From: Escherichia coli
GTDB taxonomy: Bacteria; Pseudomonadota; Gammaproteobacteria; Enterobacterales; Enterobacteriaceae
Length of the DNA: 64,000 nt
Reading direction: 5' to 3' (one strand)
NCBI RefSeq assembly: GCF_011045215.1
Contig: NZ_CP049201.1
Positions 19,961 through 29,820 of the stretch are shown here, piece by piece (position 1 is the stretch's first letter; every line of letters starts with the position of its first letter). The translations under genes were made by a program, and so were the position numbers. A model generated the notes under the pieces. It was given only the letters and a program-made list of their open reading frames with translations, was not told the origin of the DNA and searched no databases.

Positions 19961-20102
19961 TTCTCAGTTCAACTTCCTTCTGGCTAGGTTAACTTGCAAG
20001 CAGGAAGTGCTTTTCATCGATTAGTGAATACGGTAGTTTTTTCAAACTAACTGAACTCTATTCGTATGACTTAAATCTTTAAGAAGGCAGGAGATTTGAA
20101 TT

Positions 20103-20957
20103 TTGAAAAACTGGTCACCAGAGCATACTAAAGAAATCAAAGCTTGGCTTGACATAGATAACTATCGCAAGCTCGAAGACATCAGTTTAAATGCCTTGTA
20201 TCACGAACTTTGGGCAAGAGCACTTCTGTACAAGCCTGGGCCTACTGACGAAGAAAAGAAAGGGCTATGGGTGTACATGACTGAAATTTTCAGTGGGAAC
20301 CCCCATCTTTTCAAAGGGAAGCATCTCGATTATCCAACAGTTAACGATACTCTCTACAGTCCTCCACACATTTTTATCACGGATATCACCAGGCTTGCTG
20401 AACTTAGTGTGATGGCTCTTAGTGTGAATCTTTTCACCTGGGAGGAAGGAAACGATGAATATTGTGTTAATGCGCCTCATCACGAAGCTTATGTGTCACA
20501 ACTCTTGTCCCCCTTATGTGAGAAAACGGTGTTGCTTGAAATCGATCTTGGTAGTGGTACTGACGATGAAATAGCCGAATCGATAAAAGCGGCCCTGCCA
20601 CAATGGAGATCGGTAAAAGGAGTGGAAGTTAATGAAACCGGTATCGTTCGTTTCGGCTATGGAACCATTAAAAAAATTATAAATTACAGGTTGGTTGCGA
20701 TGCTGGACATCTTACTTTGGGCAAAAAGGAAAGAACTAAGAATCTCAGATGATCGCCTCTCCCGGCTTCTTTATACTGATGAAGATGAAGAAACAACTAC
20801 CCGTTTAGGGTATCACATTAAAGACTCAGATCGTCCGCTTGCGATGAAAGCTGCAACGATAGACTTCATTAGGCAGTTCAATTTTTTCATGAACCGAAAT
20901 CCCCACCTGAAAAACATGAGAGTTTCAGATGTGATGAAACTCTCTGATTCTAACTGA
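20103..20957 (+). CDS. Hypothetical protein (284 aa), upstream of alpA-like gene
   Basis: Long ORF; position before an AlpA-like gene suggests an integrative-element module; no motif recognised. Confidence 0.55.
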   Translation: MKNWSPEHTKEIKAWLDIDNYRKLEDISLNALYHELWARALLYKPGPTDEEKKGLWVYMTEIFSGNPHLFKGKHLDYPTVNDTLYSPPHIFITDITRLAELSVMALSVNLFTWEEGNDEYCVNAPHHEAYVSQLLSPLCEKTVLLEIDLGSGTDDEIAESIKAALPQWRSVKGVEVNETGIVRFGYGTIKKIINYRLVAMLDILLWAKRKELRISDDRLSRLLYTDEDEETTTRLGYHIKDSDRPLAMKAATIDFIRQFNFFMNRNPHLKNMRVSDVMKLSDSN

Positions 20958-21079
20958 TCTCGAATTCCCGAAGTCTACTACTGCAGGGCAGACCGTAACC
21001 CTGCAGTTAGGAAGCTCGCTCCTTTCTTTTCCCAACTGTTCGTATAGTGATCCCATCACAACGACAAAGGGAAAACAAA

Positions 21080-21286
21080 ATGAACAATCAAAATACCCGC
21101 CTAATTCGCTTGCCAGAAGTTATGAACAGAACCGGCTATGGCAAGGCCTGGATTTATCGTCTAATCAACGAAGGTTTATTTCCACAACCAATAAAAATTG
21201 GTTCGCGTGCAATTGCATTTGTCGAAAGCGAAGTAGATGAATGGATCGCATCTGCAATTGAACGTTCACGTAAAAATGCAGCCTGA
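21080..21286 (+). CDS. alpA: AlpA-family (prophage regulatory / excisionase-like) DNA-binding protein
   Basis: ORF 21047-21286; start ATG 21080 preceded by AAGGGA; sequence LIRLPEVMNRTGYGKAWIYRLINEGLFPQPIKIGSRAIAFVESEVDEWI matches the AlpA/MerR-like HTH pattern. Confidence 0.7.
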   Translation: MNNQNTRLIRLPEVMNRTGYGKAWIYRLINEGLFPQPIKIGSRAIAFVESEVDEWIASAIERSRKNAA

Positions 21287-21490
21287 TTACGGGGCTAATG
21301 ATGAGTGTATTAAATTTGGTGTGTAAAAATAAATGGTGCTATTCAACAATGAGCCGAGGGCCGCCTGATATTTTATAAGTAGTATTAGGTTAGGCTTTGG
21401 TATTAAGAAGTAATAACAATAGTCATTGGTGGAGATTATGATGGCATTTTTACCGTGACATTATAAATTAATAAGTACAGGAGATTTAAA

Positions 21491-21766
21491 ATGAATAATT
21501 CAATCAGAGTACCGGAAGATAAAGATTTTGTATGTGCATTTGTGACTTCACCGGATAGCTTGTATGAGGCTATTGAAACCTATCGTAATTATGTAGATCC
21601 AGTCGAAGAGATAGAGTTTGAGCACGTCCTTCTTTATTTGTTGTGTTCTATACTGGTCGAAGGTGCTACAGATGTTACCATTAATGATGAAGTACGAATG
21701 TGTATTGAGCACCTTGTCAATGAAAAAAATATTATCAGAAAGAATAATGCAGGTAAAAAGGTGTAA
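21491..21766 (+). CDS. Hypothetical small protein (91 aa)
   Basis: ORF in AT-rich island segment; ATG preceded by GGAG; no recognised domain. Confidence 0.4.
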   Translation: MNNSIRVPEDKDFVCAFVTSPDSLYEAIETYRNYVDPVEEIEFEHVLLYLLCSILVEGATDVTINDEVRMCIEHLVNEKNIIRKNNAGKKV

Positions 21767-21939
21767 AGTCTGTAATAAATTATCATGGGTACAGACAGCA
21801 CAAGTCTGTACCTTCTTATTTTAATCCTACTGGTAATGATATATAAAAATTATGTGCTTTTGATAGCGGTCATGTGGTTTTGCTATAGTAAGCATTGCAG
21901 GATAGGAATATCCTAAACTTTCATTCTCTGCCCTTTGTT

Positions 21940-22245
21940 TTATTTAAGATAACTGAAAAATACAGGGTTTAAACGATACTGGTATTTGAACTCAGTAGGT
22001 ATAATAACATTCGTATCAATCAGTTCATCGATGGCCCGATAAAATCGGGCTGGCGTAATATGTATATCTTCCTGCTGTGCGATGGATGTTGCACGGTGAA
22101 AGTTCAGGTAAACAGTGTTTTTATCTGGTGTGTATGAAGCGATTAATGTGAGAAGCCAAAACACATAGTGAGCAGTATTGTTCAGATTGCGTTGTTCATC
22201 TGATAATTTATTCTGGTAAAGGTAAGCAGGGAGTCTTTGCTTCAT
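21940..22245 (-). CDS. Hypothetical small protein (101 aa)
   Basis: ORF immediately downstream of the wHTH gene on the same strand; no recognised domain. Confidence 0.4.
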   Translation of the reverse strand: MKQRLPAYLYQNKLSDEQRNLNNTAHYVFWLLTLIASYTPDKNTVYLNFHRATSIAQQEDIHITPARFYRAIDELIDTNVIIPTEFKYQYRLNPVFFSYLK

Positions 22246-22314
22246 AAAGATATCCTTTGTTTTATTAAGTTTTTCGCTGGTGTGGGGCGTAAAATCACCG
22301 CGCTGTTATGTCTT

Positions 22315-22878
22315 TTAAAAGGGAATGCCGTCAGTTGGATATCTGTTTCTGGATTTTTTTACAGGCTTTGTTTTGCGCCCTGCGCGATAAAAGTTGAATG
22401 AAGTGGCAAAATCTTCAGTCTCAAGTCTGGATTTACTGAATTTATCCATCAGATCTTCATTGAAACGATGAGGAATACCTTTTACGCATAAATTAGAATT
22501 CAGGTAAACCTGACCGTCTTCAGCGTTACGGATCAGTATTTTCCTCTCAAATAATTCTCTGAATGCACGTGAAACATTCGATTTATTCAGTCCTAACTCT
22601 CTGGCAGTACGTGACTGTGAAAAGTCAGGGATAATATTTCCATAATCAATGACTGAGAAAAGATAAAGAACAATTCTGAATGCCGTTGGTGTCAGATCCA
22701 TTCGGGCGAGTGTGGCCGTATTATCTTTAAAGACCATCGAAAAATCGTCACGAAAGGATGTCTTTTTACAGGCACTTGCTTTAACTTTTATTTCTTCCAG
22801 ATCTTCGGGCATAACATCTAATGCTTCTGCAATGATTGCTTTTTGTTCTTTAGTTAACATAACACTTGTGTTTGACAT
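22315..22878 (-). CDS. Winged-HTH protein, replication-initiator-like or regulator
   Basis: 187-aa ORF with probable HTH (TARELGLNKSNVSRAFRELFERKIL); lies next to a direct/inverted-repeat-rich noncoding region (23.3-23.7 kb). Confidence 0.55.
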   Translation of the reverse strand: MSNTSVMLTKEQKAIIAEALDVMPEDLEEIKVKASACKKTSFRDDFSMVFKDNTATLARMDLTPTAFRIVLYLFSVIDYGNIIPDFSQSRTARELGLNKSNVSRAFRELFERKILIRNAEDGQVYLNSNLCVKGIPHRFNEDLMDKFSKSRLETEDFATSFNFYRAGRKTKPVKKSRNRYPTDGIPF

Positions 22879-23341
22879 AATGGCTCCTTTTTTATTATTG
22901 TGATAACAGATATGGCATATTAAATTTGTTTGTCAATATTATTAGTAATAAAAATTTTAAAATATTATATTTATTGCTCTGTGATTATTTTTTTAGTGAA
23001 ATATTAAGGGTTGTCAGAGTTATTACGAAGGGTGCTAAATTTCACCATCACCCGTTATGTCATTAATAATTTTTGGTTCTGAAAGATACAACCAATATTC
23101 TATCTTAACTTGTTGATGTAATTGATTAATTTTCTTTTTGTATTTGCAAGATAAAAGAGTGATAAAGAAACAAGAAACCGAAATTTAGCTTTAGACTGAC
23201 ACAAAATTCCATTGTACACAGTTTGATAAACACTGCTATTGCTGATTTTCCTTCGTAATATTATTCCTTAAGTGAAGCCTGCGCACCTGTATGTTGCGCC
23301 ACTGGGCTTCAGAACATTGCTATAGTGTTTAACTGTCAGTA

Positions 23342-23439
23342 GAAATACGCTTCGCGCAGGAGTTCAGACAGTTGGGTTTAGCTCTCAGCACAAATACGCT
23401 TCGCGCAGAGATTCAGACTGCTGAGTTTAGCGAAAGAGT
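23342..23439. repeat. Two tandem ~49-bp direct repeats (AAATACGCTTCGCGCAG.AG.TTCAGAC.G.TG.GTTTAGC)
   Basis: Read directly: 23342-23390 and 23391-23439 are near-identical; followed by nested inverted repeats (GGCTCACGCCGG at 23475-23486 vs GGCGTGAGCC near 23618-23630). Confidence 0.7.
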
Positions 23440-24151
23440 GGACCCGACTACATGATTTACCCGTTAACTTAATACGGCTCACGCCGGAACCCCTTCGGAA
23501 AAATCCTTTCTGCTTCAGCGAGTGAGTGCTGTGGGCACTCAGCGGCGCTGCAAGAGGGATTAAACGTTGGGTTTTCATCTGACGGGTAAAAATAATCTAC
23601 ATATATCTGTCGTCGGGGGCGTGAGCCGGTGCGTAGCACTCTCTCAGAAAAATTCCTGAAGGGGTTTTATCTGAAATCTGGAAACTACCTGGCTTTTGAA
23701 AAAAGGAAGTGGTAATGCAATCGATCGGACTCAACATTGCAACAGCGTAAGCTGTTTCCAGTATTAAAAGAATAAATAGTTGTCATTTTAAAATAAAATA
23801 TTTTCAATTTTGTATTGATTTAAATTTTAAAGCTGATAGTACTTAATTATAAAAACAAAAAAGGAGAGGGTTATGAGTAATATTTTTGTTTCTTCTCAGG
23901 AAGAAAAGTTTATATTTGTTGTTGATAAATATATAACACAGCATCGCGACAGTGTTAATAACAATATTTTTTACAGAAAACTTTATGTGCTTTTCGCTGG
24001 ATACCATCTGAAGTATTTTTATTCACGGGCGCAATATCGCAATTCGTGTTATTGCGTATTCCGCTCTATTCGATCACGGATTGGCATCGAAGTTCGATCA
24101 GCGATTCGCATCCATTCGATCAACCGGGAACTTAACTTTTTCTACCGCTTT

Positions 24152-24907
24152 TTAACTCGTTTTTTCGCTGCTTTCCACTGTCGGGGGATTTTTCCTCAGG
24201 GACTCTCCCTGAAGGACCACTCTGTGTGAGTTATGTACCAGTCTGTCCAGGATGGCATCTGCTGTTGTTGGGTTCTCCATCAGACCATGCCATTTATCTA
24301 CCGGGAACTGGCTTACCACTATCGTGCTGCTTTGTCCGTAACGATCCTCTGTGATCTCCAGAAGGTCATTACACTGGGCGTTACTTAACTGTTCCAGCCC
24401 CAGATCGTCCAGGATTAGAACCTGTATTTTTTGCAACTGTTTCAGATATTTCAGCCAACTGCCATCAACACGTCCCTGAGCCAACTGTTCCAGTAATCGC
24501 CCGGTTCTACAGTACCGGACGCTGTATTTCTGTCGACATGCCTGTTCGCCCAGCGCATTGGCTATCCAGCTCTTACCGCATCCTGTCGGACCGGTTATCA
24601 GTAGGTTTTTCCTGTGGATTATGTAGTGGCCGTTCAGCAGTTCCCTCATCTGTTCAGCCCGCAGACCTCTTGAGGCCGGATAACGCAGCCCTTCCGGTGT
24701 TGCCTGATATTTCAGGCAGGCATTTTTTCTCAACCGTGCCACACGACTGTTTTCTCTGCTCAGAAGCTCGTCATCAACCAGCAGTGTCAGCCTTTCCTCG
24801 AACGACAGTTCGTCGTAAGTCTGAGGCGTTTCCCGTTGCCGTATCAGGCTCCCGGCCATCGCCGGGAGTTTCAGTTGGGTCAGTTTGTTTAACAGATTAT
24901 CACTCAT
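24152..24907 (-). CDS. istB: IS21-family helper ATPase IstB
   Basis: ORF 24152-25150; likely start MSDNLLNKL (24907); Walker A GPTGCGKS and typical IstB layout; overlaps the end of istA. Confidence 0.85.
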   Translation of the reverse strand: MSDNLLNKLTQLKLPAMAGSLIRQRETPQTYDELSFEERLTLLVDDELLSRENSRVARLRKNACLKYQATPEGLRYPASRGLRAEQMRELLNGHYIIHRKNLLITGPTGCGKSWIANALGEQACRQKYSVRYCRTGRLLEQLAQGRVDGSWLKYLKQLQKIQVLILDDLGLEQLSNAQCNDLLEITEDRYGQSSTIVVSQFPVDKWHGLMENPTTADAILDRLVHNSHRVVLQGESLRKNPPTVESSEKTS

Positions 24908-24923
24908 ACGGTTGTTCCTTCTG

Positions 24924-26489
24924 TCAGTGGTAGTAGCCAGGACCACGCAGGTTTTCATGCTCTGAAGCATATGCCGGATGTTGTTCGCCCTGGCGGGATA
25001 ACGGAAGCTCAACGTTATCCCGATGATGACGCAGCAGATTGTCGATAAAGCGTCTGTCCGGGGCGTTATAGTGCAGGGCAACGTAACAGGCCTTTTCCAG
25101 CCGTTCCGGGCCGTATTTTTTCTGAAGTGCCAGCAGACCCAGGACTGCACGGTAAGCCAGCTCCGGATGGGGTTTGGCTTTCAGCATGGATTCAACCACC
25201 CGGCCTGTGGACGGACCTGTACGGTTTCCCTGCTCGATAAGGCGTTCCGGTGTCCATGTCCCATGCCGCCGGTGGCGTTCTGGCATGTGAAGCGGATTGG
25301 TTGTGTGTTTATATTCATGTGTGCTGCGCGGATGTTGCGCCACACACTGCCCCTTGTGCCAGAGCTGTACCACCGACTGCCCCACCTTCAGTGACAGACG
25401 CTGACCGACCAGTTCGTGTGGAACGGAGTACCAGTGACGGGCATATTCAACGTGGTAGTCAGGGCCAACCTTCACGGCTTTGTATTCCGTGTATTCATAA
25501 GGCTCCAGAGGCAGCGGAGAGAGTGCTGGTGCATCCAGCATGCGGAAGCGTTCTGCGCGGGTTTGATTACCGTATCCCTTCATTGGTCGGTTATTCATGT
25601 CCGTCAGCAACTCCCGAAGGCGTGCATTCAGCGCCCTGAGCGTGTGGAAGGTTTCATTACGGATGCGGGCAAGAAGCCATCGCTCGACGATGAGGACGCC
25701 GTTTTCTGCTTTTGGTTTATCTTTAGGTTTGCGCGGGCGGGCCGGGATAATAACCGTGCCATAGTGCTCAGCCAGCGCCTGATAACTGTCGTTGATGACA
25801 GGCTCATAGCGATCGGCTTTTTTCACTGCGCTTCTGAGGTTATCGGGGATGAGCAGCTTCGGTACGCCGCCCAGGAAGGTCAGGCAACGGCTGTGGGCAT
25901 TTAACCATGACATCATGTCCTGACCTTCGCACGCTTCAACATAGGTATAGTTGGACGCCCCCATTACAGCCACGAAGATTGCCACGCGGCGTATCTCTCC
26001 GGTGTCCGGATTAATAACAGGGACCGTAGGACCACAGAAGTCGATAAAGAGCTTTTCGCCAGCACGATGCTCCTGTCGCATGGAGAGGCGTCGCGTTTTT
26101 TTCCACTTCCGGTAGCAACGGCAGAAGTGTGAGTATCCCATCGCTTTGTCACCCGCCTGTGCCTTGTATTCCATCCACAACAGTTGGCGCGTCACGCCAG
26201 GTTTTCTCATTTCCGTATCGAAGTACAGCATGTCAGGCATAACAAGCTCTGACGCAGAGGTGTCTTTGGGCGGGAAAATGAGTTTCTCCAGCGTGTCATG
26301 GGATATATCAGCAGGTAATGGCCATGACAGAGAAGAGGCTTTGAAGCGGGCAAGAACCTCAAAAACGGTTGAGGCGCTGATGTGTAACGTCAGTCCGATA
26401 CAACGGTTAGTCAGCTTCTTATCGAACTTGAGCTGAAGGATCTTAAAACAAGTTTCCATAGTGCTCCTGGATTTTCTCTTTTTGGACAT
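24924..26489 (-). CDS. istA: IS21-family transposase IstA
   Basis: ORF 24924-26591; likely start MSKKRKS (26489); N-terminal HTH followed by integrase-like catalytic core; paired with istB. Confidence 0.8.
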   Translation of the reverse strand: MSKKRKSRSTMETCFKILQLKFDKKLTNRCIGLTLHISASTVFEVLARFKASSLSWPLPADISHDTLEKLIFPPKDTSASELVMPDMLYFDTEMRKPGVTRQLLWMEYKAQAGDKAMGYSHFCRCYRKWKKTRRLSMRQEHRAGEKLFIDFCGPTVPVINPDTGEIRRVAIFVAVMGASNYTYVEACEGQDMMSWLNAHSRCLTFLGGVPKLLIPDNLRSAVKKADRYEPVINDSYQALAEHYGTVIIPARPRKPKDKPKAENGVLIVERWLLARIRNETFHTLRALNARLRELLTDMNNRPMKGYGNQTRAERFRMLDAPALSPLPLEPYEYTEYKAVKVGPDYHVEYARHWYSVPHELVGQRLSLKVGQSVVQLWHKGQCVAQHPRSTHEYKHTTNPLHMPERHRRHGTWTPERLIEQGNRTGPSTGRVVESMLKAKPHPELAYRAVLGLLALQKKYGPERLEKACYVALHYNAPDRRFIDNLLRHHRDNVELPLSRQGEQHPAYASEHENLRGPGYYH

Positions 26490-26625
26490 TGACGTCTCCA
26501 CTGGTTTAAACACGGCAATGGAGACTGTGGTGAAAAGAGTTAATTCCCGGAGTGACTGGCGAATTCCAATCAATGATCGGAAGTATGCCAAATCGTGATC
26601 GATTGTGATGCCAACATATCCTTAC

Positions 26626-28100
26626 CCATAAATCCGAGTGATGTTATTCTGTTGATAAATTAACCATAATTTAGAGGAACTATGGAAAACTGGGTTATTA
26701 AGGAGCTGGAATCTCTGAATGTTGGTGATATCAGGCTCGAAAAGCGAATAAAGCACGTTCTCAGTGTGCTTAGCCGTTCACCAAAGGAAAGTATTCCCGT
26801 ATCCTGCCGTACCTGGAGTGAGACAAAAGCTGCTTATCGTTGCTTTTCCAGTGATAAAATTTCAGCCGATAAAATCATGGCTCCCCATAAGAAAAATATC
26901 ATCGAAAGGACTAAACAGTTTAAACGGGCTCTGGTTTTACAGGATACGACTGAACTAAATTATTCTGGTCAAAAAAAGAAACAGGGCGTCGGTCCCAGAC
27001 GACATGAAAATGAGCGAGATTTGTTTATTCACCCTCAATTGGTTATAAGTGATTCAGGTATTTGCTTAGGGGTTTATGATGATTATCAATGGTTCAGAAA
27101 AGAACTCAAAACTCAGAAACAAAGTCGTAAAGAAATAACTAATGATTCACTTCACAGGAAACATATCAGTGAGAAAGAAACAGGACGGTGGATAGAAGGA
27201 TATAAAAAAGCAACAGAACTGGCTAGGTCCTGTCCTGATACCCAGATAATTTCTGTTTCAGACCGTGAAGGTGATATTTACGACCTCTTTGAGAGTGCAG
27301 AAAATGAAAGTGGGATAAAGGCTGACTGGCTCGTAAGAATGAAGAGCATTAACCGGGCTATACTGAATTCATCAGGAAAAAGAGACTCATTACTCCTGAA
27401 TGAAAAAATGATGCAGATTTTGCCACAGCAGATAATTGAGTTTACCCTTCCGGAAGGACGAGGACAACCTTCCCGCAAAGTCCAGCAGGAGCTACGCTTA
27501 GCAAGGTTGACGCTACATCCACCCACCGGTCGAAGAGGAAAGTTACGTTGTTCTCCGGTAACGGTAACTGTATTACTTGCAAAGGAAATAAATGCTCCAG
27601 AAAGTGTCCAGCCATTAGTATGGTGGCTAATGAGTAGTGTACCTCCAGAAAAGCTGACGGAACCCGCACAGCTTATTCAATGGTATTTATTACGCTGGCA
27701 GATTGAAGTTTTCTTTAAGGTATTAAAAAGCGGATGTCAGGTTGAGAAATTACAACTTGAGACATTTGAACGCACAAGGAACTGTCTGGCCTTATACCTT
27801 ATAATCTCATGGAGAATACTTTATCTTAGCTCATTGTATAAAATGGTTCCGGAGGAACCCTGTGATTTAATTTTCGAAAAGAAAGAATATGAGTATCTCT
27901 GGATATTGGTAGAGAATACGCCTCCACCTGAAAACATACCGAATATAAGAACGGCGGTTTTAATGCTTGCAAGATTAGGAGGATATCTGGCAAGAAAAAA
28001 TGATTCGCCTCCAGGCCCTAAGACTATATGGTCAGGATTAACACAATTAATGCTGTCAATTAATGCCATAGAAATAGCCCAGAAAACTTGTGGGTAAGGG
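26626..28100 (+). mobile_element. IS4-family insertion sequence nested in the IS21-family left end
   Basis: Single transposase ORF flanked by imperfect terminal inverted repeats (CCTTACCCATAA... / ...TTGTGGGTAAGG); both flanks carry IS21-type repeat motifs; boundaries approximate. Confidence 0.6.
26682..28097 (+). CDS. IS4-family DDE transposase
   Basis: 471-aa ORF containing the IS4 Y-x2-R-x3-E-x6-K signature (YLLRWQIEVFFKVLK). Confidence 0.85.
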   Translation: MENWVIKELESLNVGDIRLEKRIKHVLSVLSRSPKESIPVSCRTWSETKAAYRCFSSDKISADKIMAPHKKNIIERTKQFKRALVLQDTTELNYSGQKKKQGVGPRRHENERDLFIHPQLVISDSGICLGVYDDYQWFRKELKTQKQSRKEITNDSLHRKHISEKETGRWIEGYKKATELARSCPDTQIISVSDREGDIYDLFESAENESGIKADWLVRMKSINRAILNSSGKRDSLLLNEKMMQILPQQIIEFTLPEGRGQPSRKVQQELRLARLTLHPPTGRRGKLRCSPVTVTVLLAKEINAPESVQPLVWWLMSSVPPEKLTEPAQLIQWYLLRWQIEVFFKVLKSGCQVEKLQLETFERTRNCLALYLIISWRILYLSSLYKMVPEEPCDLIFEKKEYEYLWILVENTPPPENIPNIRTAVLMLARLGGYLARKNDSPPGPKTIWSGLTQLMLSINAIEIAQKTCG

Positions 28101-28195
28101 TATGTGATGCCAAACTGTGATCGGAGATGGATGCCAAATCATGATCGATTCGAATGCCAAACTGCGATCGATTCAGATGCCATTTTGCAGTTATC
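28100..28195. repeat. Displaced IS21-family subterminal repeat block (3-4 copies of ATGCCAAA..TGATCGATT)
   Basis: Read directly: GTGATGCCAAACTGTGATCGG, GGATGCCAAATCATGATCGATT, CGAATGCCAAACTGCGATCGATT, CAGATGCCA. Confidence 0.6.
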
Positions 28196-29635: not shown

Positions 29636-29820
29636 GACTCCGTGGCCTGATTTAAGGTGATGTATTTTTGAACATTTTCGATGAATGATCCGCTTTAGTA
29701 AAATTGCTTGTACCGATCGATGGATCTCTGTTGATAGGTTATAACTATCATAACAAGATTATCGATCTATATAAACGATCAATATTTTATTGACTATCAC
29801 TAAAATATGGATTAGTTAAC

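Follow-up and report, generated by a model that had tools for sequence, protein, structure and literature searches.

The window analysed here is a 64,000-nt stretch of an Escherichia coli genome (NZ_CP049201.1), in which a noncoding gap of ~1 kb between genes (22879-23872) lies in an integrative mobilizable element (IME), next to a gene for a 187-aa wHTH protein. What is this region for, and what is the role of the repeats and hairpins in its distal part? The initial annotation, which was confined to 23342-23700, offered either a plasmid or satellite replication origin with iterons or a structured RNA. As a separate observation, which the initial annotation missed, a conserved noncoding element spans the entire gap.

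The rep gene and its plasmid relatives

22315-22878, minus strand: rep gene, 187-aa wHTH protein of the pHW126-like Rep family (by BLASTP/tblastn homology)

The gene is encoded on the minus strand and is transcribed away from the repeat region, as had been described. By BLASTP, its product shares 40% identity over 131 aa with RepM of pIGMS31 (E 1e-32). A tblastn search with the same protein matched 61 plasmids, nearly all of 2.3-3.7 kb, including pIGMS31 (E 2e-23), pHW126 (2e-8) and pIGRK (2e-7). Relatives at 45-48% identity are found on ~3 kb plasmids whose other content is a Mob gene or nothing annotated, and on plasmids of 2.3-3.2 kb the Rep relatives are the sole replication candidates. 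Pfam returned weak matches to Cro, HTH_36, Rep3_N and Phage_rep_O, and a MarR-type HTH match was also obtained; for the homologues, HTH_36 is the precomputed assignment, with RepL in a few. Judged by this homology, the 187-aa gene is the Rep of the pHW126-like small-plasmid family. A 68% identical Rep is also encoded on the 3672-bp ‘plasmid’ OX345049.1; since this record is a linear contig whose sequence begins 63 nt ahead of the gene, it was set aside as uninformative on the noncoding element.

The noncoding element is inherited and lost with rep

The rep module is present in 182 of 5426 complete E. coli genomes (~3.4%). The noncoding element occurs in 181 complete genomes of this species and the relaxase family in 380. 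All E. coli occurrences (185/185 places) are chromosomal and within an integrase-bearing island, and the module is also found in genomes of Citrobacter, Pseudocitrobacter, Superficieibacter, Phytobacter, Salmonella and Yersinia. The islands carry Kiwa, type I restriction-modification, SIR2 and ankyrin genes. When metagenome and viral loci were sought by the core first, rep sat at a fixed offset in 34 of the 35 with enough flank. Conversely, two sister islands that have the common backbone without rep retain no trace of the element; these rep-less islands provide a natural, built-in control. The noncoding element is thus inherited with rep and lost with rep. The proposal of a replication-origin region adjacent to Rep therefore holds as far as the Rep family and this co-occurrence are concerned, whereas the part that took the 49-bp repeats for iterons finds no support (see below).

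A type III toxin-antitoxin locus was also considered and rejected. Such a system requires a ToxN-like gene that immediately follows the repeats and is co-inherited with them, and the downstream 141-aa protein has no match in Pfam, NCBIfam or PHROGs; moreover, its gene lies ~450 nt from the repeats and is retained in islands that lack them.

Candidate origin elements next to rep

22908-22936, minus strand: candidate rep promoter, TTGACA (22936-22931), 17-nt spacer, ATATCT (22913-22908), from sequence reading
23008-23093: four degenerate 22-bp units, at the position of plasmid IT1-4 in the MAFFT alignment
23105-23119: ATCAACAnnTTA motif on the rep-sense strand, in conserved alignment columns
23146-23179: near-invariant purine tract GCAAGATAAAAGAGTGATAAAGAAACAAGAAACC, putative equivalent of the plasmid CR, from conservation and blastn-short

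Plasmids of the pHW126 family have the order ssi-like palindrome, CR, IT1-4, IR and rep, with four near-identical iterons of 20-22 bp (PMC6854812; bioRxiv 10.1101/2022.12.05.519187). Several short candidate elements of the island follow the same order. Across the IME lineages the TTGACA of the candidate promoter is kept, as it is in the three plasmid origins of Klebsiella type that the alignment contains; the pIGMS31 segment included there ends short of the promoter. MAFFT aligns the 22-bp units with the ATTATGAAAATCATAAT iterons of the small plasmids, of which there are likewise four. By nhmmer, two of the units were aligned to two plasmid iterons with E-values of only 1-7, and a hand count shows three of the four to be mutually identical at only ~8-12 of 22 positions. 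The alignment is no more than suggestive of a correspondence between 23008-23093 and the plasmid iterons. The ATCAACAnnTTA motif is common to the small-plasmid origins, where it directly precedes the first iteron (MAFFT alignment), and its ATCAACA forms part of the layout agreement between island and plasmid origins.

The tract at 23146-23179, which is pyrimidine-rich when read on the rep-sense strand, shows few changes across all loci, Yersinia included. With blastn-short, GGTTTCTTCTTTCTT in the tract was matched to GGTTTCTTGTTTCTT in the CR of a Klebsiella 2674-bp plasmid at E ~0.03, a value from a very small database; the matches to Klebsiella small plasmids measure 15-23 nt. The tract and the plasmid CR have the same orientation relative to rep and similar distances to its ATG (~300 nt in the island, ~290 nt in the plasmids). 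A plasmid-origin profile searched against the islands by nhmmer gave no significant hit (E 0.04-1), with the reverse-strand control scoring equally well. Going by layout and short motifs only, 22908-23179 would follow the plasmid order, with the promoter of rep, a set of four degenerate units resembling iterons and a tract resembling CR. All three lie outside the distal segment, 23267-23700.

Repeats and hairpins of the distal module

23274-23310: conserved two-step hairpin/palindrome, GAAGCC-T-GCGCA ... TGCGC-CACTG-GGCTTC, from compensatory changes
23327-23431: tandem 49-bp repeats, each with AAATACGCTTCGCGCAG (GCGAAGC on the rep-sense strand), from TRF and repeat search
23456-23666: accessory-module core, two interleaved long-range inverted repeats around two conserved blocks, from repeat coordinates
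23513-23551: conserved block CTTCAGCGAGTGAGTGCTGTGGGCACTCAGCGGCGCTGC, stems CAGCG/CGCTG and GAGTGC/GCACTC with a variable loop, from the alignment
23616-23639: conserved block GGGGCGTGAGCCGGTGCGTAGCAC, the 3' arm of the first long-range repeat plus the hairpin GTGC-GTA-GCAC, from the alignment

The tandem direct repeats noted initially were recovered by TRF at 23327-23431 (period 49, 2.1 copies, 84% matches) and by a repeat search as copies at 23327-23375 and 23376-23424 with 80% identity; the start at 23342 given before describes the same array in a different phase. On the minus strand, GCGAAGC is located at 23349-23355 and 23398-23404. The evidence does not favour these repeats as the iterons. 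Their copy number is 1, 2 or 3 depending on the lineage, they have degenerated in two clades that retain the core and a Rep of 63-69% identity, and the units aligned with plasmid iterons are located elsewhere, at 23008-23093. The repeats are not insertion sequence (IS) debris either, because they occupy the same place in ~60 loci; six genera with them came from the species-genome scan alone. GCGAAGC is also found upstream of CR in pIGMS31, pIGRK and pHW126, and the exact motif is absent from the three Klebsiella-type plasmids closest to the island Rep. We rejected it as a diagnostic motif: the choice was post hoc, the window has 10 occurrences vs 8.7 expected by chance, and it is a lead only.

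The inverted repeats of the core were confirmed as well. The arms CGGCTCACGCC and GGCGTGAGCCG (23475-23485 and 23618-23628) are complementary at 11/11 positions, AACCCCTTCGGAAA and TTCCTGAAGGGGTT (23488-23501 and 23653-23666) are 86% complementary, and the palindrome GAGTGC-TGTGG-GCACTC sits at 23524-23540. The long-range repeats had been described as nested; their arms in fact run A B A' B', so the repeats are interleaved and can therefore form only as alternative pairings or a pseudoknot. In the CTTCAGCGAGTGAGTGCTGTGGGCACTCAGCGGCGCTGC block, the stem columns are invariant in 23/23 representatives, including 10 loci found by protein alone.

An extra hairpin at 23274-23310 had been overlooked. 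It carries two independent compensatory changes, from C-G to T-A in the outer step (3 representatives) and from A-T to C-G in the inner step (2 representatives), a pattern equally expected from a symmetric protein-binding site. By eye, we also dropped a Xer/cer site (GGTGCGTAGCA resembles the XerC arm and no XerD arm was seen), a sigma-54 promoter of the wrong spacing, and DnaA boxes, IHF sites and the MOBQ/MOBP nick consensus.

Coding, folding and transcription signals

The distal segment is noncoding. No ORF of at least 30 aa is common to the 23 representatives, one of which has no such ORF, and a 48-52-aa plus-strand ORF present in some lineages is left with only 6 codons in the window. When the region and its core were searched by blastn against plasmids and phages up to E = 10, no match was obtained.

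The plus strand of the 446-nt segment folds with -155 kcal/mol (z = -5.2, 0/100 shuffles as good) and the minus strand with -131 kcal/mol (z = -2.8). Among the 23 representatives, folded with RNA and DNA parameters, z-scores are not uniformly low and no strand preference was found; values are -4 to -5 in the clade of the window and in a Yersinia-type clade, and about -1 in the largest clade. Core pairing amounts to 86.9% vs 86.0% in shuffles, and double-change pairs to 9 vs 8.2 (199/500). The covariation score is 0.080 vs 0.062 in shuffles (2/500), an excess that relatedness alone can yield, and RNAalifold gives a covariation term of -0.28 with two covarying pairs. Some long-range pairs show compensatory changes (23480/23623, 23499/23654 and 23460/23586, 125-155 nt apart). 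Among wobble-type changes, one stem favours the minus strand and others the plus strand. In the conserved hairpins the stem sequence is fixed and the loops vary, a pattern that sequence-specific binding of a protein would explain no less well than a plain structural signal would.

A search of 20000-27000 with the Rfam 15 covariance models on both strands at E <= 1 returned nothing relevant, apart from a chance snoRNA match elsewhere. A sigma-70 promoter scan, also projected on the alignment, picked up only weak AT-rich matches; the terminator scan, likewise extended to the alignment, found no plus-strand terminator-like site, and its two minus-strand ‘terminators’ are the repeat motif itself. 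No positive support was thus obtained for the structured RNA offered initially as an alternative: an Rfam match, a convincing promoter and a plus-strand terminator are lacking and covariation is weak. The retron msr/msd that had been considered is likewise not borne out, since the annotated neighbouring genes in the carrier strain E24377A and in the other islands include no reverse transcriptase.

Alternative explanations

Fixed stems bring up the possibility that the 49-bp repeats and the palindromes (GCGCAAC..GTTGCGC, GAGTGC..GCACTC and GTGC..GCAC) are duplex sites for Rep dimers or another island protein. Close to the earlier iteron idea, such sites could act as extra iterons, as incompatibility or titration sites setting copy number, or in coupling replication to excision. 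We regard this as unlikely, although several points favour it: stems and half-sites are invariant with variable loops and spacers, compensatory changes within the 23274-23310 hairpin are all of the symmetric kind that a dimer site demands, neither folding nor wobble pairs prefer a strand, and the repeat copy number varies. The plasmids agree with it too, in that inverted repeats are the strongest binding targets of RepM, which recognises several unrelated sequences, and that ssi or CR fragments from pIGRK and pHW126 show incompatibility (bioRxiv 10.1101/2022.12.05.519187). Against it, the palindromes are unlike one another and unlike the iteron-like units near rep, the 49-bp repeats decay where the core and rep persist, their spacing and 1-3 copies depart from the four 20-22-bp iterons of the family, and compensatory changes 125-155 nt apart would be unexpected. 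A plus-strand RNA, more doubtful still in our estimate, could account for the better fold of that strand in the window. Its 5' end would fall close to the iteron/CR region or immediately ahead of the 23274 hairpin, and its 3' end at the U-rich tract beyond 23666; such an RNA would prime or regulate replication, or else regulate transfer. In every lineage the plus strand does have a T-rich tract following the 3' arm, weak promoter-like sites point in that direction at ~23065, 23101 and 23256 in 12-18 of the 23 representatives, and pIGMS31 has additional promoters, close to CR and antisense to that of rep, that are active experimentally. However, Rfam, promoter and terminator searches gave the negative results above, the alignment offers only two covarying pairs, the largest clade has no folding excess, and in the main long-range stem the two mismatches seen most often read C.A on the plus strand.

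For an oriT of the island's MOBP-like relaxase, one would point out that no other conserved noncoding stretch of the backbone is as large as the one holding 23267-23700, where hairpins lie beside conserved sequence, and that little is conserved upstream of the mob operon apart from a promoter-like TTGACT. We nevertheless reject this reading as very improbable, because linkage fails and a better candidate exists. Sister islands with the relaxase family, the 141-aa gene and the lipoprotein genes are wholly without the element, the relaxase family is in 380 genomes vs 181 for the element, and no similarity to plasmid sequences was found. The better candidate lies elsewhere and is common to islands with and without rep:

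29692-29722, between the relaxase and the 90-aa gene: oriT candidate, inverted repeats plus invariant CATCGATCGGTACAAGCAATTTTACTAAAGC

The region upstream of the mob operon was itself dismissed as an oriT, since it is poorly conserved and its hairpins, which differ between lineages, look like terminators.

Proposed function

The reading we prefer, at somewhat less than even confidence, is that a pHW126-type replicon resides in the IME and has its cis-acting replication region at 22879-23872, with 23267-23700 as the counterpart of the plasmid ssi. For the distal segment, the most likely assignment, ahead of the iterons and of an RNA gene, is a single-strand-initiation or accessory element that is specific to the lineage and adjoins the true origin. 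From position and hairpin content, we infer that it corresponds to the ssi-like element of the plasmids. That element is dispensable there, and its deletion leads to a higher copy number and to multimers (PMC6854812; bioRxiv 10.1101/2022.12.05.519187).

Replication of the island is proposed here from homology and layout, and could proceed as follows. The island would excise as a circle, and Rep would bind and nick its rep-sense strand directly upstream of the CR-like tract, by analogy with pIGMS31, in which a nick on this strand has been mapped immediately before CR (PMC6854812; bioRxiv 10.1101/2022.12.05.519187). Leading-strand synthesis would then displace the rep-sense strand, with 23267-23700 becoming single-stranded last because it is just upstream of the expected nick. 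Once exposed, the segment could fold into the 23274-23310 hairpin, a GCGAAGC mini-hairpin per 49-nt repeat, and the GAGTGC/GCACTC and GTGC/GCAC hairpins. These would recruit host priming enzymes to start the complementary strand, and such a start would limit single-stranded DNA, copy-number overshoot and multimers. Priming on the same strand might also take place after conjugative entry; sso elements in pMV158-type plasmids are also required for establishment following conjugative transfer.

A more novel function for the 430-bp module is possible but would surprise us more: it may be an undescribed single-strand-active element (an sso or ssDNA promoter, with GCGAAGC mini-hairpins in variable number and a pseudoknot-like core) or a new structured RNA controlling replication. 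If the single-strand-active reading is true, the module would serve rolling-circle replication and post-conjugation establishment in widespread enterobacterial islands that carry defence genes.

Returning to the pHW126-type replication region that we favour, replicons of this type have so far been known as tiny cryptic plasmids only, and here their Rep family is fixed in chromosomal mobilizable islands. Should the island replicate after excision, the region would set its copy number, its stability and probably its establishment in new hosts. Being conserved, unannotated and absent from the plasmids searched, the distal module also makes a specific marker for this island family.

Comparison with known systems

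Islands that replicate after excision have precedents. PIMEs (repA/oriV, bioRxiv 10.64898/2026.01.12.698999) and SGI1 excise, replicate via their own oriV and Rep, are helper-mobilised and carry defence genes. PIMEs have trbJ, trbL, luxR and repA; the present island has instead a pHW126-type Rep, from an unrelated Rep family, and a MOBP-like relaxase. PIMEs and the ICEKp258.2/EARL islands were set aside as different island families.

The iteron theta origins of R6K, pSC101 and lambda (lambda O/ori-lambda) resemble the locus in having a wHTH initiator beside direct repeats and an AT-rich stretch. However, the Rep3_N and Phage_rep_O matches of the island Rep are far under the family thresholds, and its 49-bp repeats are too long, few and variable for iterons of that type.

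The single-strand origin (sso) and ssi signals of rolling-circle plasmids and ssDNA phages (Nomura et al. 1991, as cited in PMC6854812) are noncoding and hairpin-rich, like the module. The latter is likewise just upstream of an expected nick, and its counterpart is dispensable in related plasmids. It differs in that no defining motif was found in the module and the excess structure is missing in some lineages; an activity and its strand are putative.

The closest comparison is with the pHW126-like plasmids, pHW126 of Rahnella and pIGRK and pIGMS31 of Klebsiella pneumoniae, whose Rep is homologous to the island's wHTH Rep. The region may correspond to their REP module in layout, with a strong-looking candidate rep promoter, four iteron-like units in 22-bp phase, a CR-like pyrimidine-rich tract and a hairpin-rich noncoding stretch beyond. 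The likeness of the origins at the DNA level is nevertheless below statistical significance, and the iteron-like units of the island have diverged from each other, whereas those of the plasmids are near-identical. A pHW126-like replicon is an autonomous 2-3 kb plasmid with REP and MOB only; the island rep sits instead in the chromosome, within a large island with integrase, mob and defence genes. Beyond the CR-like tract, the island has a distal module of ~430 bp with a variable number of 49-bp repeats, which lack a counterpart in the described plasmids. No sequence similarity was found between the distal segment and the ssi regions of six plasmids; with the ssi-like element of the family it agrees in position and in hairpin content.

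Genomic setting

The repeat- and hairpin-rich noncoding segment considered here (23267-23700) lies in a gap of about 1 kb (22879-23872), with the 187-aa HTH gene (rep, minus strand) on one side and a 141-aa gene (plus strand) on the other. The window comes from an E. coli chromosome and shares 99.9% identity with E24377A along the stretch concerned. The gap is part of an integrative mobilizable element with a backbone recognized by pooling related islands:

Island backbone, first part: integrase, DUF6387 gene, AlpA-like excisionase or regulator, HTH gene, gap
Island backbone, second part: 141-aa gene, three small genes, MOBP-like relaxase with its 134-aa partner, then cargo
23873-24052 and 28190 onward, plus strand: 141-aa gene (L001:15974-16399 in a compared locus)

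Some of the small genes are lipoprotein-like, and among the cargo are genes for ankyrin-repeat proteins, SIR2, Kiwa and type I restriction-modification. The 141-aa protein matched no family in Pfam, NCBIfam or PHROGs; its gene is retained in every island of this backbone, rep-less ones included, and its start codon is preceded, at a distance of about 17 nt, by conserved CTGATAGTACTTAATTATAAAAAC (23833-23856). In the window it is disrupted after about 60 codons by a 4.1-kb insertion (24053-28189), absent from E24377A, that carries istA/istB of the IS21 family together with a 471-aa ORF (26682-28097); the alignments flanking it share 5 bases, resembling a target-site duplication.

A pHW126-family Rep and its probable origin

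The HTH gene encodes a pHW126-family Rep. Pfam and NCBIfam gave weak wHTH or initiator-type matches only, and homologues found by protein search carry HTH_36 and sometimes RepL domains. Those of 45-48% identity reside on plasmids of ~3 kb (one assembled as a 2943-bp tandem) whose other genes are only a Mob_Pre relaxase and a 59-aa ORF, and on a circular 2674-bp Klebsiella plasmid the rep homologue is the sole annotated gene. A tblastn search of PLSDB returned 61 plasmids, nearly all of 2.3-3.7 kb, with pIGMS31, pIGRK and pHW126 among them; BLASTP against RepM of pIGMS31 gave E 1e-32, with 40% identity across 131 aa.

In this family, which is known from experimental work (PMC2831885, PMC6854812, bioRxiv 10.1101/2022.12.05.519187), the REP module comprises, in order, an ssi-like (single-strand initiation) palindrome, a conserved region (CR) of ~20 bp, four iteron-like repeats of 20-22 bp, inverted-repeat operators and rep. 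The origin consists of CR plus iterons, and the minimal origin of pIGMS31 takes in the inverted repeat IR1 as well; RepM nicks the rep-sense strand immediately upstream of CR; the ssi is non-essential, its absence raising copy number and causing rapid multimerisation; and replication has both rolling-circle and theta features (same sources).

Taken along the rep-sense strand, the 330 nt that precede rep align with the plasmid origins:

23179-23146, minus strand: pyrimidine tract GGTTTCTTGTTTCTTTATCACTCTTTTATCTTGC, corresponding to plasmid GGTTTCTTCTTTCTTATTTTCTTAC
Next after the tract, minus strand: motif ATCAACAnnTTA
23093-23008, minus strand: four units in 22-bp phase, opposite the plasmid iterons
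After the four units, minus strand: TTGACA promoter candidate

From the start of the tract to the ATG is 301 nt in the window versus 292 nt in the 2674-bp Klebsiella plasmid. The DNA-level match is not statistically secure: blastn-short found the correctly oriented tract at E ~0.03 with a very small database, and nhmmer gave E 0.04-7, with a reverse-strand control scoring equally. Unlike true iterons, moreover, the island's four units have diverged from one another. For these two reasons the proximal 300 bp is only the probable origin proper, an assignment made mainly on Rep homology, position, order and spacing.

Two other loci deserve mention. The 3672-bp linear Salmonella 'plasmid' contig OX345049.1 in PLSDB, whose Rep is 68% identical and starts at base 64, is probably a chromosomal-island fragment filed as a plasmid. 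A more distant Rep homologue (48% identity) is encoded on a metagenome scaffold that resembles an island and has a MobA_MobL relaxase (L062, 4157-6000); the scaffold carries six clean 22-bp iterons (AAATTATGAAATTCATAATTAA) and, about 1.8 kb off, a second RepL-like gene with 21-bp repeats of its own.

Conservation and linkage to rep

A one-genome-per-species scan with the HTH protein yielded 10 loci, from Pseudocitrobacter (two species), Citrobacter (two), Superficieibacter (two genomes, three loci), Phytobacter, Salmonella enterica subsp. diarizonae and Yersinia pekkanenii, and the noncoding element was present in all 10. Searches with the core DNA pattern and the purine tract added 44 metagenome and 2 viral-collection loci, respectively. 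The pooled loci comprise 50 distinct sequences (23 clusters at 97%; identity to the window down to 55%), and their conservation is blocky:

rep promoter
Around 23030-23095
23146-23179: purine tract, nearly invariant
23274-23310: hairpin
49-bp repeats: 1, 2 or 3 copies, degenerate in two clades
23513-23551 and 23616-23639: core blocks

Among complete E. coli genomes, 182 have rep, 181 the element and 380 the relaxase family. Where flanks sufficed, rep lay at a fixed offset in 34 of 35 core-found loci, the single exception being a rearranged contig. ETEC H10407 (L073) and one other strain (L074) have the same backbone, including the 141-aa gene, small genes and relaxase, with rep and the entire gap replaced (L073 1952-6723, L074 1816-6587) by a pair of tyrosine recombinase genes plus two further genes; neither sister island retains a trace of the element. 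The element is thus inherited with rep: co-occurrence, joint loss and fixed offset assign it to rep rather than to the 141-aa gene or the relaxase.

The replacement in L073 and L074 is a naturally occurring exchange of modules at the same site: the two recombinase genes are adjacent, and the other two products are a DNA-binding protein of 624 aa and a protein of 128 aa. In the metagenome contig L034, compared with L030, the core is kept without rep and homology ends about 410 nt rep-side, in the AT-rich origin part; the contig is either rearranged or chimeric.

Sequence features and alternative roles of the segment

With the element tied to rep, it is most improbable that the segment is the oriT. 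A much better candidate, the best of the island, is the highly conserved spacer of ~190 nt that separates the relaxase gene from a 90-aa gene and is common to islands with and without rep:

L001:19721-19908 (alignment A6): relaxase/90-aa spacer, with inverted repeats GATAG..CTATC and ATCG-rich
29692-29722, minus strand: invariant 31-mer CATCGATCGGTACAAGCAATTTTACTAAAGC in this spacer

The spacer upstream of the mob operon (L001:21534-21710 and equivalents, A5) was rejected as oriT, its hairpin resembling a terminator of the upstream ankyrin gene; the hairpin sequence is lineage-dependent (GAGCAGATT..AATCTGCTC versus GGGTATAC..GGTATACC, then TTTTTT).

A structured plus-strand RNA is quite unlikely; the initial annotation had offered a structured ncRNA as the alternative to an iteron origin. 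Folding 23255-23700 as a single strand gave -155 kcal/mol (z -5.2 against shuffles) for the plus and -131 kcal/mol (z -2.8) for the minus strand; across clades, z was -4 to -5 in the window and Yersinia-type clades and about -1 in the largest, with no strand preference. The segment is noncoding, matched no Rfam family, and showed no convincing promoter and, on the plus strand, no terminator-like site. A plus-strand ORF of 48-52 aa from the ATG of ACATGATTTACCCG (23452 onward; equivalents in L002, L003, L011, L018, L032 and L040) is probably fortuitous, since it has only 6 codons in the window and is missing from other lineages.

The repeats reported initially are real: the tandem 49-bp units (period 49, 23327-23431, 2.1 copies, 84% matches by TRF), the palindrome GAGTGC-TGTGG-GCACTC (23524-40) and the inverted repeats, which are interleaved (A B A' B') rather than nested:

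23475-85/23618-28: long-range inverted repeat 1, 11/11 complementary
23488-501/23653-66: long-range inverted repeat 2, 86% complementary

These two are either mutually exclusive alternatives or a pseudoknot. Two-sided changes occur at long-range pairs 23480/23623 (C-G to T-A), 23499/23654 (A-T to G-C) and 23460/23586 (C-G to T-A). The RNAalifold consensus retains local hairpins only (covariation term -0.28). In a seven-helix model, 86.9% of cells are paired versus 86.0% in shuffles, double-change pairs number 9 versus 8.2 expected, and the covariation score of 0.080 versus 0.062 (2/500 shuffles) is a level that relatedness alone can yield. Taken together, the structure tests are equivocal. The conserved hairpins vary in their loops and keep their stem sequence, which points to sequence-specific recognition. 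We consider a duplex protein-binding or incompatibility array unlikely.

Proposed role and relation to known replicons

We conclude that the segment very probably belongs to the pHW126-type replication region of the island and acts in cis. It is on the far side of the CR-like tract, in the position that the ssi-like element occupies in plasmids; it has no detectable sequence similarity to plasmid ssi-like elements, or to the plasmid and phage records searched. We infer a lineage-specific equivalent of the ssi or accessory element of the plasmids, and only tentatively a specific ssi/sso-like role. With the published polarity of nicking, Rep would cleave the rep-sense strand (minus strand of the window) immediately to the right of 23179, and the leading strand would be extended toward rep. 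Of the displaced strand, 23267-23700 would be the last part exposed, which is where a single-strand origin classically lies.

Each 49-nt unit bears, on the rep-sense strand, GCGAAGC, a DNA mini-hairpin of unusual stability. The motif also occurs upstream of CR on that strand in pIGMS31, pIGRK and pHW126; the closest Klebsiella plasmids do not have it, and the window has it no more often than expected by chance, so that it is a lead rather than a test.

Our literature search turned up no account of either a pHW126-type replicon within chromosomal islands or the distal module (23267-23700). An oriV of their own is already known from other island families, and the kind of element is familiar. Compared with its plasmid relatives, the island replicon appears to be a small-plasmid replicon that has become domesticated, with iterons that have degenerated and a conserved region of putative accessory function that has expanded.
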